Both the position numbers and the translations under genes were made by a program. Under the pieces are notes generated by a model. It had not been told where the DNA came from, did not search any database, and worked only from the letters and a program-made list of their open reading frames with translations. From assembly GCA_903944345.1 (NCBI GenBank), contig CAJARJ010000009.1, forward strand, positions 65,875-129,874: 64,000 bases of DNA, given 5' to 3'. Of the stretch, positions 52,627-63,538 are shown piece by piece. Numbering within the stretch: position 1 is the first letter of the stretch; each line of letters begins with the position of its first letter. This DNA is from Candidatus Omnitrophota bacterium (GTDB lineage Bacteria > Omnitrophota > Gorgyraeia > Zapsychrales > Fredricksoniimonadaceae).

Positions 52627-54291
52627 TCACGGAAATTCATATAAATATAAACCGACACCTTTGTCTTCTTTCTGAACTACCTTTTTGGCAGAAAGATCAA
52701 ATGAACGCTTAACTATATCAATCAACGCCTGCTCCAATGGATCATGTGTTGCCACATAGAGCCAAACGCGCCCCCAACGCTCTTTACTAATCACCGGCAC
52801 ATCCTGACAGGCGAAAAGTAACTGATCTCCTCCGCTTAACAGGCGTCGGAAATGTCCTCCGGCGTCATAAACGTTATACTCATAACGCATCGGAACACAT
52901 TCCCTGCCATTACTTTTGATCGAATCCAAAGCAAATTTTACCACGCGAACACCTCGCTGCAATTCCCCCTCAAACAACCCCAACGGTTGCGCTAAGAAAC
53001 GACCGTAGCCGTAAATAGGAGCGTAATGCCAAAAAGGCTCTTGTCCGGCAGTATTAAACACCAGCAAGTCCCCTTGCCGATAATTTTCATGAAACAGCCT
53101 CAAAGCCTCTCGTGTCTCAATTTTTGCGTGTGAATGGAAAAGATAGAACCCCGCTTCCAGAAAAGAAGGAACCACCAGAACCGCAACCAAGCCCACGGTC
53201 AATACAATCCTTCTCGCAGCAGAGAATTTGCTGATTAAAGCACCGACCGCCTCTGCAATCAGAAGGATGACTCCCGGCATAAGAAACAGGATCAGCCTGC
53301 CACGGAAAGGATACTTTTCCAGCGCTGCCGCAAGCAGCGCAGCCAGAACCGGAAACAAAAACATCCAGAATCGCGCACGATCGCGCTTCCATAACAGAAC
53401 CGCCCCGCTCAAACAAAGAAATCCCGCCAAAGGTGTCACATAAATCCCGGCAGCACCTCTGAACATTTCAAGAAAAGCCTTCAACGCCCACCATATCAAA
53501 GCCGGAAGATTGGTCCAACTACCTGTATAGACCGAACCGGAAAAAGTTGACAAAATAGCGGTACTCCCTACCATTGAGGCCAGACTAAGTCTATAGATAA
53601 CAAGCAAAACCAATAGCCAAACCGCCGCAATCAGAAACAAAAGCGGCGCTGCCGCATATCTTTTACGCGCCCACATATCATCCAGCAAAATGACTCCGAA
53701 CGCTGCCAGAACAAAAAGCAGGGCATTGGACATCCAGAGCCCTGCCACACCGAAGGCAAGCAGCCATAAAAGAGCTCTGGTTTTGTACTCACAGCGACGA
53801 ATCCATTCAAAAACCCACAAAGCCAGAACCGCCATTAAAAGATCACTGGAATACTGTTTCACCTCACCTGCGTAATAGACCATCGGTTCAGCAAAAGCAA
53901 ACAGCGCCAGAGCCCAAGGCAAAACATCTCGTGAGGCGTAACGACAAAGGTAACGATAAAAAAGTATTAAAGCAAGAATCGCCGAAAAAAACGGAAAAAA
54001 GCGCAAAACCATATCTGTCGGGCCAAAAAGAGAGACCAATATCCGTTCAATCACAAGAAAAAATAGCGGCTGTTTGGGAAATTCGGGGAAGATTTCGAAA
54101 TAAGAAAAAATTTCTCCCAATGACCGGCTTGTGATACTGACCGTCAAACAAGCCTCATCCAGCCATACCGAACGGTTCTCCAGATAATGCTTTAGACGAA
54201 ATATAATTCCCAGCGACAAAATTATCCATGACAAGCGGCCCGCAAGAACATTATAAAAAGCTCTTGTTTTATCCCGAAAGAATGACATCAT
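52627..54291 (-). CDS. GT-C fold glycosyltransferase (GT39/GT83, ArnT/PMT-like)
   Basis: 554 aa and polytopic. The first periplasmic loop carries the DE motif (RSVWLDEACL). A C-terminal soluble domain is present. Confidence 0.6.
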   Translation of the reverse strand: MMSFFRDKTRAFYNVLAGRLSWIILSLGIIFRLKHYLENRSVWLDEACLTVSITSRSLGEIFSYFEIFPEFPKQPLFFLVIERILVSLFGPTDMVLRFFPFFSAILALILFYRYLCRYASRDVLPWALALFAFAEPMVYYAGEVKQYSSDLLMAVLALWVFEWIRRCEYKTRALLWLLAFGVAGLWMSNALLFVLAAFGVILLDDMWARKRYAAAPLLFLIAAVWLLVLLVIYRLSLASMVGSTAILSTFSGSVYTGSWTNLPALIWWALKAFLEMFRGAAGIYVTPLAGFLCLSGAVLLWKRDRARFWMFLFPVLAALLAAALEKYPFRGRLILFLMPGVILLIAEAVGALISKFSAARRIVLTVGLVAVLVVPSFLEAGFYLFHSHAKIETREALRLFHENYRQGDLLVFNTAGQEPFWHYAPIYGYGRFLAQPLGLFEGELQRGVRVVKFALDSIKSNGRECVPMRYEYNVYDAGGHFRRLLSGGDQLLFACQDVPVISKERWGRVWLYVATHDPLEQALIDIVKRSFDLSAKKVVQKEDKGVGLYLYEFP

Positions 54292-54306
54292 ACACTCTCC
54301 ATAGAA

Positions 54307-55128
54307 TTATAAAGCACCCCGTAACCGCACCTGGATGCCCTCTGATTTGCTGTCGGCATCGACCCGGCTCTGTCCAAAAGCATTGATCTGATCAGCAAAA
54401 AAAGAACGTTCTTGTTCGGTCCCGGTCACTAAAGGCCGACCTTTCTCTGAGACAATCTTAACCCGTTGCTTTAAAAGGTCTTCAAGCCTCACGGCCAGGT
54501 CTTCTCTCTTTCTAGAGCGAAGCGCAGTGATGGCATCCATAACCTTGAATCGCTGATTGAGGATCATATAACACAGTCCGGCTCCGTAATGAAGCATGGC
54601 ATTATCGTCGCGATTCAGATTCTTCTCAAAAAACGGCAAAGCTTCATCCGCATTGGACTGTCCTAAAAGATAAACCCAGGCCAAAGAAACCTCAATGTCC
54701 GGCTGGGAGGTCTTCAGAGCAAGTGAACGGCTTAACGCTTGAGCGGCTTGAGAAAAATCACCAGAAGAATAACAGGCCCGACCCAGATTATTCAAAGCAT
54801 CCACACTTTGAGGATCAATATCAGCAGCCAGTCTGAAATATCGGATAGATTCCCGAGTATCCGCCATTGGCCCGGATTCAAAAACAACGCCAAGGCCGTT
54901 ATAGGCTGCGGAAAACCTGGGGTCGAGTTCTATCGCTTTCTTGAAAAATTCAATAGCCTGCTCATAGGCGCCATCACGAGTAGCCATTACTCCCATTTGA
55001 TAAAAATTTTCTTTAGTCAACGACGCGGCTGCGCACAAAGAAGAAAATGAAGAATGGACGACCAGAATTGCCAGGAATATAAAAGTAGACAAACAAAACT
55101 TTTTACTAGACACAGGATTACTGAACAT
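54307..55128 (-). CDS. Secreted TPR-repeat protein
   Basis: Signal peptide; I trimmed the start to MFSNPVSSKKFCLSTFIFLAIL. At least four TPR units (AYNGLGVV, ALNNLGRACY and others). Confidence 0.65.
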   Translation of the reverse strand: MFSNPVSSKKFCLSTFIFLAILVVHSSFSSLCAAASLTKENFYQMGVMATRDGAYEQAIEFFKKAIELDPRFSAAYNGLGVVFESGPMADTRESIRYFRLAADIDPQSVDALNNLGRACYSSGDFSQAAQALSRSLALKTSQPDIEVSLAWVYLLGQSNADEALPFFEKNLNRDDNAMLHYGAGLCYMILNQRFKVMDAITALRSRKREDLAVRLEDLLKQRVKIVSEKGRPLVTGTEQERSFFADQINAFGQSRVDADSKSEGIQVRLRGAL

Positions 55129-61777: not shown

Positions 61778-61780
61778 TGC

Positions 61781-63538
61781 TCAAACCTCCGGAAGAATTT
61801 CCTTGAGCGTTACATTCAGGACCTCTACCGGCGTAGTGACCCCGGAAAGGACATTTTGCCAACCATCCTGTCTTAATGTCCGCATACCTTTAGTGACGGC
61901 CATACGCTTAATATCCTCCGCCCTTGGCTTATCCAGAATAACAGAACGAATATCGGAATCCAATTCCAGAACTTCATAAATGGCTGTCCGGCCATAATAC
62001 CCGGTAGAGTTGCAATAATCACACCCCCGGCCACGAAAAATCTTGACAGTCTGAGTTCCCGATAATCCCAGGCTAAGAGTTATTTCGCGACGAATATCAA
62101 CCAGCGGATCCTCGTCTTCCTGCTTGCAATGCGGGCAAATAACTCGCACCAGCCGTTGGGCAATAAAAGCTTGCACGCTTGATGCCACCAGATACGGTTC
62201 CACTCCCATATCAACAAGACGGGTCACCGCGCTGGCGGCGTCATTAGTGTGAAGTGACGAAAAAACCAGATGCCCCGTCAAAGCTGTCCGGATAGCAATA
62301 TCTGCCGTTTCACGGTCACGAACCTCCCCCACCATCAGGATGTCCGGATCATGACGAAGAATGCTACGCAACCCTGTTGCAAAGCCAAAACCGACATGTG
62401 TGTTAACCTGAATCTGAGTTAACCCCTCCATCTCGTATTCAATAGGATCTTCGATTGTAATAATCTTGCGTGCCGGATCGTTAATCTCATGCAAGCAGGC
62501 ATATAACGTTGTCGTTTTTCCGCTACCGGTAGGCCCAGTCACAAAAATAACCCCATGAGGACGACGAATTAATTCCCTGAATTTCAACGCATTTTCAACG
62601 TTAAACCCCAACTTTTCCAAATCCAGCAGGGTCGAGGCAACAGGAAGAAGACGGATCACCATACTCTCCCCGTGTGGAGTAGGAATAGTGGAGACGCGTA
62701 AATCGAGTGTCTGGTCTTTAACCCGAACCACCGCACTGCCGTCCTGTGGGAGACGTTTCTCGGTAATGGTCAAATTGGCCATAATCTTTATTCTGGAGAT
62801 AATCGGAGATAAAAAATGTCTGGCTTCTGGAGGAAGATTGGCGTCCAGCAAAACGCCGTCTATCCGGTAACGAAAACGAACCCGGTTTCGATAAGGTTCA
62901 ATATGAATATCCGTTGCCCTTTTCTGGTAGGCTTCAAGAATAATCTGGTTGACCAATCGTGTAACAGAAGGATCATCCGTTTGCTTTTCTATATCTTCTA
63001 TGCGCTCCGAGGTTTCTTCCAACCTGCGGTGAAGGTTTCCCCCGCTGGTCATAATCTGATCAATCGTCTCGGAGGCCAGACCATAATACTTCTTTAAAGC
63101 CTCATCAATATCCCAGGTCGAGGCCAGAACAAAGCGCGGCTCAAGCCCCAGATGTGCCCGGATATCGTCCTGACTATTAATATCCAGCGGCTCAGCGACC
63201 GCCATTGTGAGGCGATGATCTTCTATCGAAACAGGCATAAAGCGATAATACGATGCGAACTTCACCGGAACGCGATCAACAATCGCGCGGTCAATGTTCA
63301 AAGCCTTTAAACTGACAACCGGAATTGAAAGTTTTTCAGAAAGGACTCTCAGAACATCCCTGGAATCAAGAACACCCTGCTGAACAAGATAACAGCTGAG
63401 TCGCTGATCAAGCCGTGAAGCCTCTGCACTGTACTGGCTTAAAAGAGCCTCATCGATTAAGGCCCCATCCAATAATGCCGCGACAACCGCCTTGTTGACC
63501 GGCAGCTTTAACATATCAAACCCTCGGGGCCCGGCCAA
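61781..63538 (-). CDS. gspE: GspE secretion ATPase
   Basis: N-terminal GSPII/MshEN domain, Walker [12 protein letters not shown], and the tetracysteine zinc motif CPHC...CDYCNSTGY. It starts on TTG. Confidence 0.9.

Follow-up and report, generated by a model that had tools for sequence, protein, structure and literature searches.

A type II secretion-type gene cluster with an embedded metallopeptidase and a candidate glycosylation module in the ATPase-filament locus of Omnitrophota

What kind of machine is encoded by a gene cluster that holds the motor, platform, and pseudopilins of a type II secretion system (T2SS), encloses a protease gene, ends in a sugar-transferase gene, and includes no secretin? 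The question is raised by 64,000 nucleotides (nt) of DNA from a Candidatus Omnitrophota bacterium (contig CAJARJ010000009.1, positions 65,875 to 129,874), referred to here as the window, in which the operon under study occupies positions 52627-63538 of the minus strand. Members of the Omnitrophota are uncultured, ultra-small, and probably host-dependent, and the locus is among their most conserved surface-machine clusters. A preliminary description of the window had named eleven genes (gspE, gspF, an HExxH peptidase, gspG, a minor pseudopilin, gspJ, gspK, gspL, gspM, a TPR protein, and a GT-C glycosyltransferase) and suggested a pseudopilus machine dedicated to glycosylated cargo or to a glycosylated pseudopilin.

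The answer favored here is that the region is the T2SS-type half of the Omnitrophota “F-type ATPase + type IV filament” locus, with a peptidase partner and a glycosylation module. Taken whole, this statement is tentative, its likelihood falling a little short of even. Its core is all but certain: the locus is the known Omnitrophota one, and its inner-membrane and pseudopilin parts are of T2SS type. Two elements look new: a protease that is in every case built into the locus, and membrane sugar-transferases that are repeatedly attached to it.

The comparative set comprised 80 genome loci from a scan with a profile of the peptidase, in which 502 relatives of that protein were confirmed. The peptidase homologs carry the names Omnitrophica or Omnitrophota, as do nearly all of the 80 loci. 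Proteins of the window and of L001, the longest readable of four public contigs whose gspE is identical to that of the window, were mapped onto these loci with phmmer. Families were assigned with Pfam and NCBIfam, and with hhalign for the minor pseudopilins; gspC-O of E. coli K-12 served as the canonical T2SS reference. Pfam scans for secretin, GspC, and GspO covered the largest open reading frames (ORFs) of the window, and E. coli GspC, GspD, GspO, and HofM-Q were used as phmmer queries against every ORF of at least 60 amino acids (aa) in the window and the 80 loci. Sequence and predicted models are the whole basis of the account.

The known locus was described by Seymour et al. (2023, Nat Microbiol), who reported the co-location of an F-type ATPase and a type-4a pilus in every class of Omnitrophota (PMC10066038). 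In their data, a divergent F-type ATPase cluster adjoins the filament cluster and lies within 10 kb of it in 57 of 66 contigs (PMC10066038). The same locus is found here: the genome belongs to the Omnitrophota, its filament cluster has an ATPase cluster less than 10 kb away, and the window contains the filament half plus the last ATPase gene. The present account differs in that subunits G, I, J, K, and M have T2SS-type scores and that the peptidase, the TPR protein, and the STT3-like and GT-C enzymes are shown as conserved parts or partners. Of note is that the words “peptidase”, “oligosaccharyl”, “glycosyl”, “secretin”, and “PilQ” do not occur in the main text of that paper (PMC10066038).

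The features of the operon and its immediate surroundings, in the direction of transcription of the operon, are as follows.

63516..63998, minus strand: F-type ATPase beta subunit, C-terminal 160 aa (cut by the window end); Pfam ATP-synt_ab 1.3e-15, ATP-synt_VA_C
61781..63514, minus strand: GspE-type assembly ATPase; T2SSE 2.9e-130, N-terminal MshEN 2.6e-19, Walker A and tetracysteine motif
60572..61777, minus strand: GspF-type inner-membrane platform protein; T2SSF 3.5e-59, two domains
59718..60575, minus strand: secreted gluzincin metallopeptidase; Peptidase_MA_2 8.8e-16
59291..59704, minus strand: major pseudopilin GspG; T2SSG 7.8e-31, N_methyl, class III signal peptide G↓FTLVE
58888..59325, minus strand: GspI-like minor pseudopilin; N_methyl 3.8e-6, hhalign to E. 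coli GspI
58307..58891, minus strand: GspJ-like minor pseudopilin; N_methyl 2.7e-4, hhalign to E. coli GspJ
57289..58305, minus strand: GspK-like minor pseudopilin (tip); T2SSK_1st 2e-14
55755..57224, minus strand: PilM-PilN fusion, GspL equivalent; PilM_2 1.9e-10 (residues 46-208), PilN 9e-13 (residues 394-468)
55118..55744, minus strand: GspM/PilO-like bitopic platform protein; T2SSM 3.7e-4 and T2SSM_b 8.1e-4, both below cutoff
54307..55128, minus strand: periplasmic TPR protein; many TPR Pfam families, e.g., TPR_1 7.4e-16
52627..54291, minus strand: GT-C-fold glycosyltransferase (GT39/PMT_2-like); Pfam PMT_2 below cutoff
52483..52559, plus strand: tRNA-Ala(CGC), between the two convergent units; ARAGORN
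49882..52383, plus strand: STT3-like GT-C-fold membrane glycosyltransferase, 833 aa; Pfam STT3 2e-16

All eleven ORFs at 52627-63538 were verified as closely packed minus-strand genes, and by family scans their earlier names are essentially correct, with the amendment that “GspL” is a fusion of PilM_2 and PilN. The intergenic distances from gspE to the GT-C gene are 3, -4, 13, -35, -4, 1, 64, 10, -11, and 15 nt, so that the translational coupling proposed for all of them fits only about half of the junctions, those that overlap or nearly do so. The likely start of gspE is the ATG at 63514, as called on the four public contigs. A scan for promoters and terminators returned consensus matches only and gave no usable operon boundaries.

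The T2SS signature is clearest in the major pseudopilin GspG, a protein of 137 aa that passes the T2SS equivalog TIGR01710 (144.3 bits, cutoff 88.85). GspE scores 586.6 bits with the NCBIfam GspE model (cutoff 630) and 560.4 bits with PilB, which is also below cutoff, and the best match of GspF is TIGR02120 at 299 bits. The GspI-like protein matches gspI at 5.3e-6 and aligns by hhalign with the full length of E. coli GspI (105 columns, probability 79%), and the GspJ-like protein aligns with the full length of E. coli GspJ (157 columns, probability 75%). GspK matches T2SS_GspK at 9.5e-20, and the GspM-like protein matches GspM_XpsM at 1e-8. The PilM-PilN fusion matches pilM and the Amuc_1101 family in NCBIfam. 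Since hhalign and gene order place the two small pilins as GspI- and GspJ-like, the pseudopilin order is probably G-I-J-K without H; GspH was not found in the operon, and the earlier count of only three minor pseudopilins (I-like, J-like, and K) is borne out. A single GspE-family ATPase is present, and no second ATPase of GspE/PilT type was found in the window.

Set beside a canonical Gsp/Pul system, the locus offers a GspE-family ATPase, a GspF platform, and a GspG major pseudopilin, with GspE, F, and G and the putative I, J, K, and M homologs in canonical order, a putative GspL equivalent, and class III signal peptides. In contrast to that system, it has no GspC, GspD, GspH, or GspO, a PilM-PilN fusion replaces GspL, a peptidase gene stands between gspF and gspG, an F-type ATPase operon is fused to the cluster, TPR and GT-C genes lie at the 3′ end, and most components score below equivalog cutoffs. 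The absence of a secretin and GspC from the 64-kb window, asserted in the preliminary description, held both in Pfam scans of the largest ORFs and in phmmer searches of all ORFs of at least 60 aa.

That description had the operon begin at gspE, and this did not hold. Only 1 nt separates the stop codon of the ATPase beta gene from the start of gspE, and beta itself is the last gene of a full ATPase operon on the same strand of L001 (L001:3030-9762), in the order alpha, epsilon-like, c, p76, b/delta fusion, gamma, and beta. Farther upstream on L001 and again on the same strand are a gene for a 2128-aa protein and then one for a conserved 442-aa protein (p442) with a signal peptide, a coiled coil, and a C-terminal anchor. 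The DNA just beyond the window end therefore holds the ATPase operon and these two genes instead of the gspC and gspD that would have made this an ordinary split T2SS. The upstream ATPase is found on all four of the public contigs that share the gspE of the window. The junction is not peculiar to this genome, as beta lies directly 5′ of gspE in 56 of the 57 loci with enough flank.

The ATPase is itself unusual. Its c subunit is normal, with Glu in the second transmembrane helix, and a second c-like hairpin, p76 (76 aa), has Gln at that position. No match to the E. coli subunit a (AtpB) was found in any of the 80 loci, by a single-sequence query of limited reach. The gamma subunit is only 19% identical to that of E. 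coli, which is consistent with a report that gamma is missed by KEGG Orthology models in most genomes (2026 preprint). Seymour et al. grouped the Omnitrophota alpha subunit with the type 2/3 F1-like ATPases of Mycoplasma (PMC10066038). The two share the use of F-type homologs outside chemiosmotic ATP synthesis, and they differ in that the Omnitrophota cluster retains c, b/delta, and epsilon-like subunits and has the second c-like protein. As for the 2128-aa protein (L001:1-3027 plus a 171-kb parent contig), a weak Lysostaphin_N match is its only Pfam signal, and fragments homologous to it are found in the corresponding position in the closest relatives (L007, L009, L010, L012, and L013).

Conservation of the machine is high. 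The nine core genes (E, F, peptidase, G, I-like, J-like, K, PilMN, and M) keep the window order in 49 of 49 loci, these being the loci that hold all nine, and the GspM-like position is likewise kept in all 49. In 69 of 69 loci, gspF and gspG flank the peptidase gene. Among these loci two architectures can be distinguished, and a third (type C) came to light through distant STT3-like genes. In type A loci, which include the window, the ATPase genes start with alpha, and a TPR gene lies 3′ of gspM in 31 loci. An STT3-like gene is convergent with the operon in 24 of these 31 TPR-bearing loci, at gaps of mostly -6 to 80 nt, and the pairing spans peptidase identities of 35-58%. In about 15 type A loci, a gene for a trypsin-like serine peptidase is located just 5′ of the STT3-like gene on the same strand (e.g., L020:19909-20685); the window has none there and has instead transketolase genes on the strand opposite to the STT3-like gene (47824-49589).

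Type B loci show the order delta-alpha-gamma-beta and are without TPR and STT3 genes. They often carry genes for sensor histidine kinases (with PAS, GAF, CHASE, Cache, and HAMP domains) among gspE, gspF, and the peptidase gene or 3′ of the latter (L075:6914-10000, L057:1306-5828, L065:3442-8641, L052:4215-6527, L084:7507-9252, and L034:10696-12660), an arrangement that suggests two-component control of the machine. The insertions were considered as candidate secretins and proved to encode sensor histidine kinases and, in one case, elongation factor G. Beyond gspM, type B loci have housekeeping genes or kinases, and L065 (below) is the only locus with genes for a secretion pore close by.

Type C is known from three loci (L092:165-9789, L093:825-15138, and L094:991-15093). 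On L093 and L094, the order is ATPase beta, gspE, gspF, gspG, two pilins, pilMN, a protein of ~250 aa, and TPR, followed by a divergent GT2 with DUF2304, an STT3-like gene, a protein of ~105 aa, a gspK-like gene, and an S41/PDZ peptidase. The shorter contig L092 covers only the part from TPR to peptidase and has two tandem STT3-like genes. In type C, then, the STT3-like gene is inside the operon on the same strand, gspK has moved behind it, and there is no MA peptidase; the GspE proteins of L093 and L094 have a PilZ domain besides MshEN.

A separately encoded secretin module does exist in the phylum, as is apparent from one type B locus and two further contigs. On L065, 3 kb 3′ of gspM, lie genes for a GspA-like AAA_22 protein, a protein with T2SSC/T2SSB domains, and a secretin (STN + Secretin_N) truncated at the end of the locus (18475-20759). 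A MerR gene followed by a secretin gene, without filament genes, is found on L090 (6239-8810) and L091 (802-4390); an AAA_22 gene is present on L090 and is not among the genes called on L091. A protein search with the L065 secretin fragment yielded 14 mostly partial proteins, none of which is tied to the genome of the window.

The peptidase embedded between gspF and gspG is a 285-aa protein with a signal-peptide-like N-terminus. Its HExxH motif spans residues 148-152, and Glu171 supplies a third zinc ligand; both are invariant in 29 homologs. A profile search against Protein Data Bank sequences gave only a marginal match to M1 aminopeptidases, so a fold search was needed. The AlphaFold2 model (mean predicted local distance difference test score of 90.1) is a compact gluzincin with a collagenase/M30-like fold, and the protein thus shows the HExxH motif, downstream Glu ligand, and thermolysin-like fold that define gluzincins of clan MA. 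Since type C loci, which lack the MA peptidase, have an S41 peptidase after gspK, some protease accompanies the machine in every architecture. Judged from its fixed gene position, the chances that the gluzincin is a dedicated partner of the machine are about even.

Its role can be framed by comparison with the T2SS-beta of E. coli, whose substrate SslE (YghJ), a zinc metallopeptidase of M60-like type, is encoded within the gene cluster of that system. In both cases a secreted zinc metallopeptidase is encoded inside a T2SS cluster, and SslE is a dedicated cargo there. SslE differs in being a large lipoprotein mucinase at the cluster head, whereas the gluzincin is a 285-aa protein encoded in the middle of the machine genes. 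Most simply, the gluzincin would be the cargo or effector of its machine; alternatively, it might be a periplasmic maturation protease. Export by the machine is proposed on the model of SslE, and here too the case is evenly poised.

The preliminary description placed the end of the operon at the TPR and GT-C genes and regarded their separate transcription as a point that would count against it. Both genes are packed onto the operon, with an 11-nt overlap and a 15-nt gap that contains no terminator-like site, and the point did not tell against it. By eye, the TPR protein has a signal-like N-terminal segment. The PilF/PilW/Tgl pilotins are likewise small TPR proteins (about 250-300 aa) that reach the periplasm and whose genes accompany those of filaments, and this identity was rejected: the N-termini of 31 orthologs have no conserved lipobox Cys, no secretin gene is nearby, and the NCBIfam matches are far under cutoff (PilW 52 bits, cutoff 154; Tgl 41.8 bits, cutoff 225).

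The GT-C fold of the last gene product was confirmed, and the acidic residues D45 and E46 of its first periplasmic loop are nearly invariant in 30 homologs. A gene of this PMT_2-like type occurs only in the window and in 4 of the 80 related loci (L007-L010). In three of these (L008-L010), a UDP-GlcNAc 2-epimerase and a GT2 gene stand between TPR and GT-C, and in L007 a GT2 gene follows GT-C. Two further loci have other GT-C-type genes after TPR, PMT-like in one and DUF6798 + YfhO in the other. As a conserved partner of the machine, the PMT_2-like enzyme itself was rejected, given the unrelated neighbors of its closest outside homologs. One of these (33% identity, L004:6553-14752) lies among genes for membrane proteins, with a YfhO-like and a TPR protein and without T2SS genes, so that TPR and GT-C may form a module of their own.

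The conserved enzyme, overlooked in the preliminary description, is instead the STT3-like protein encoded beyond the tRNA gene. Its STT3 domain spans residues 108-460 (2e-16), and its NTWWTPGHFV segment aligns with TSWWDYGYWI of Pyrococcus furiosus AglB. The motif WW[PST]PGHF is present in 19 of 19 full-length sequences (the window plus 18 orthologs from the loci), and D238 of a DxD-type acidic motif, YDNDSY (235-240), is identical in at least 95% of them. A search of 1.84 billion representatives at E<=1e-30 recovered a family of 721 clusters at 50% identity, the top 150 representatives of which read WW[PSCAT]xG[HY]. None of these 150 has Asp after WW, and the WWDYG motif is absent. In the PglB/AglB oligosaccharyltransferases, the WWDYG Asp reads the +2 Ser/Thr of the sequon. 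By its sequence, the family is a distinct STT3-like branch without the sequon-reading Asp, and probably an uncharacterised group of oligosaccharyltransferase-like enzymes with a different acceptor rule. Among the top-ranked matches of a literature search, no publication joined Omnitrophota with STT3 or oligosaccharyltransferase.

Five distant members of the family, at 25-29% identity, were sampled. Three are the same-strand genes inside the type C loci, and a fourth, on a short contig, has the same GT2/DUF2304-STT3 core, after which come a protein of 105 aa and a truncated ORF of 273 aa. Of all the evidence, the type C arrangement speaks most strongly for a functional association of a GT-C-fold enzyme, a TPR protein, and a lipid-sugar supply with the machine, and the GT2 and DUF2304 partners suggest a monosaccharide-phosphate-lipid donor rather than an oligosaccharide. 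The earlier idea of a glycosylated cargo or pseudopilin gains support because of the three locus architectures, through the STT3-like enzyme (24 of 31 loci, and type C) and not through the PMT_2-like GT-C, and a link between glycosylation and the machine is plausible on these grounds.

There is precedent for enzymes of this kind at filament loci. AglB, a member of the STT3 family, acts on archaeal archaellins and pilins. TfpW is a GT-C pilin glycosyltransferase encoded beside pilA in Pseudomonas aeruginosa (bioRxiv 10.1101/2020.04.19.049825). Both are GT-C-fold transferases of lipid-linked sugars tied genetically or functionally to type IV filament subunits, as is proposed for the enzymes described here; unlike here, AglB has WWDYG in place of WW[PSCAT]xG[HY] and works with a sequon signal, for which the present loci gave no counterpart. 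To our knowledge, no T2SS pseudopilin has so far been described as glycosylated.

As the sequence shows, a single tightly packed string of genes runs from an a-less F-type ATPase operon through gspE-F-peptidase-G-I-J-K-pilMN-gspM to TPR and, in the subclade of the window, on to a PMT_2-like GT-C. If the favored reading is right, then by analogy with established T2SS knowledge a GspE hexamer would drive the GspF platform, held by the PilM-PilN fusion and GspM, and together they would assemble GspG into a short endopilus, with a GspI-J-K tip as primer. Prepilin peptidase would be encoded elsewhere, and the same would go for a secretin/GspC module, if there is one, as it does in at least one relative. 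From gene position, the TPR protein and the GT-C-fold enzymes would form a periplasmic glycosylation module, with the STT3-like enzyme in most lineages, the PMT_2-like enzyme added in the window subclade, and GT2 and UDP-GlcNAc 2-epimerase added in its sister genomes. With polyprenyl-phosphate-linked sugar as its donor, this module would modify some component of the machine or one of its substrates, a role for which the balance of probability is close to level.

The observations that weigh against this reading are best taken together with the rival explanations that they serve. The first of these rivals is the reading of Seymour et al., in which the locus encodes a type-4a pilus, a surface filament that works with the F-type ATPase in host attachment or movement, and not an endopilus. 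Their call of the system as a type-4a pilus was based on TXSScan, and they proposed host attachment and motility as its functions (PMC10066038); in addition, Velamenicoccus archaeovorus is reported to express type-4a pili (PMC10066038). PilM and PilN are the sole Pfam matches of the platform protein, PilO has its counterpart as well, GspE carries MshEN and scores nearly as well with PilB (560 vs. 587 bits), and the matches of GspE, F, I, K, and M are all under the NCBIfam T2SS cutoffs. Against a pilus stand the short GspG with its T2SS equivalog match, the GspI-, J-, and K-like minor pseudopilins in T2SS order, and the GspM/XpsM match of the M protein. No PilT, PilA-type pilin, PilP, or PilQ was found in the window or the related loci, apart from a HofQ match in L065, and in that locus the module nearby is GspA-like and GspB/C-like with a secretin. 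On this evidence a type-4a pilus is rather unlikely.

An ordinary split T2SS is the next alternative. On this account, the TPR, GT-C, and STT3-like proteins serve general envelope glycosylation (of lipid A, O-antigen, peptidoglycan, or other glycoproteins) and are present through inherited synteny. Several facts about the sugar-transferases are in keeping with it. The PMT_2-like GT-C is specific to one subclade and missing from most loci, and its nearest outside homologs, at 41% and 33% identity, are not beside T2SS genes and have unrelated surroundings: a GT2 of its own accompanies one of them, and YfhO and TPR accompany the other. The STT3-like gene of the window lies on the opposite strand and forms a separate transcript, and the fifth distant member of its family (29% identity) belongs to a radical-SAM/PqqD cluster rather than a pilus locus. 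That gene stands between two radical-SAM genes, with PqqD and NTP_transf_5, on L095 (221-7056), in what resembles a peptide-modification cluster. Separate secretin modules, as expected of a split system, do occur in some genomes.

The search for an acceptor, which the preliminary description had proposed in the form of sequon-bearing or Ser/Thr-rich pseudopilins, also came out on the side of general glycosylation. No conserved N-X-S/T column was found in GspG or in the GspI-like protein, and the observed-to-expected ratio of N-X-S/T is ~1 in periplasmic parts and no lower in cytoplasmic GspE. Ser/Thr-rich tracts were not found in the pseudopilins or other periplasmic parts of the GT-C subclade, in which the GspI-like protein has a slightly higher S+T fraction. 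A sequon column of the GspJ-like protein is occupied in 15 of 24 sequences from STT3-bearing loci (a set that includes the window) vs. 12 of 42 sequences from other loci, and is absent from the window itself. The acceptor is probably not a classical N-X-S/T sequon, and because the WWD motif is altered, the sequon negatives remain compatible with glycosylation. Inherited synteny is harder to reconcile with a TPR-STT3 pairing that persists in 24 of 31 loci over such a range of peptidase identity, with the siting of the STT3-like gene beside a gspK-like one (in one case only a probable one) in four of the five distant members sampled, three of these being same-strand genes within the operon, and with the recurrence of three different GT-C families at the same operon end. 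An ordinary split T2SS with unrelated glycosylation genes is thus unlikely.

What remains is the outer membrane. Secretin, GspC, and prepilin peptidase were not found in the window, in 10 kb upstream of it, or in 79 of the 80 loci, and E. coli GspO had no phmmer match in the window or any locus. Since the pseudopilins have canonical cleavage motifs, a prepilin peptidase is presumably encoded elsewhere. Secretion across the outer membrane would rest on parts encoded outside the locus. The window does contain markers of two membranes, namely genes for MlaE, an ABC ATPase, MlaD, an ABC_trans_aux lipoprotein, and a protein with three BON domains (22694-25943 and 10114-11013, both on the minus strand). 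The Mla and BON genes point to a diderm envelope, which bears on the need for a secretin. The West-Roberts preprint describes T2SS-like loci beside giant genes; these were considered and rejected, being Tad-type (gspD/E/F, rcpC) and a different locus.

A secretin-less machine, whose endopilus never crosses the outer membrane and which, with the a-less ATPase, p442, and the peptidase, acts as a periplasmic or inner-membrane device (e.g., for envelope remodelling or for driving the adjacent very large protein), would accommodate the lack of a secretin within 10 kb in 79 of 80 loci, the head-to-tail ATPase operon and gspE in 56 of 57, the ATPase without subunit a and with an extra c-like protein, and the 2128-aa protein and conserved, anchored p442 that precede it, yet it is improbable: no T2SS-type system of diderms offers a precedent, the phylum does have secretins (West-Roberts preprint) and their genes are often unlinked, and the large protein is tied to the machine by adjacency in the closest relatives only.

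The favored reading, a T2SS-type half of the ATPase-filament locus with its peptidase and glycosylation module, sharpens the parts list of this machine, which becomes T2SS-type rather than simply a type-4a pilus and gains a constant collagenase-like protease plus recurrent GT-C-fold sugar-transferases. It raises the hypotheses that the protease is an exported effector and that a pseudopilin or cargo is glycosylated, and the STT3-like family points to an uncharacterised bacterial branch of oligosaccharyltransferase-like enzymes. A more far-reaching proposal can be put forward, although it is doubtful. The WWxPGH STT3-like enzyme, TPR protein, and GT2/DUF2304 might constitute a glycosylation system dedicated to a bacterial T2SS-type filament, with the pseudopilus tip (GspK/J) or the exported peptidase as its target. 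Bacteria would then have an equivalent of the AglB-dependent glycosylation of archaellins and pilins, under a new acceptor rule, and the glycosylated endopilus, the protease, and the a-less ATPase would make up one composite envelope machine with which to attack or attach to hosts.

Two other features of the window may be mentioned. A GGDEF diguanylate cyclase is encoded at 18348-19256 (minus strand), and with the MshEN-type N-domain of GspE, regulation of the machine by cyclic di-GMP is possible. Next to it, at 12095-18347 (minus strand), is a second glycoconjugate cluster. Its products are a fusion of GT4 and alpha/beta hydrolase, an acyltransferase that carries a phosphopantetheine-binding domain, and a membrane protein of 893 aa that begins with a GtrA domain.

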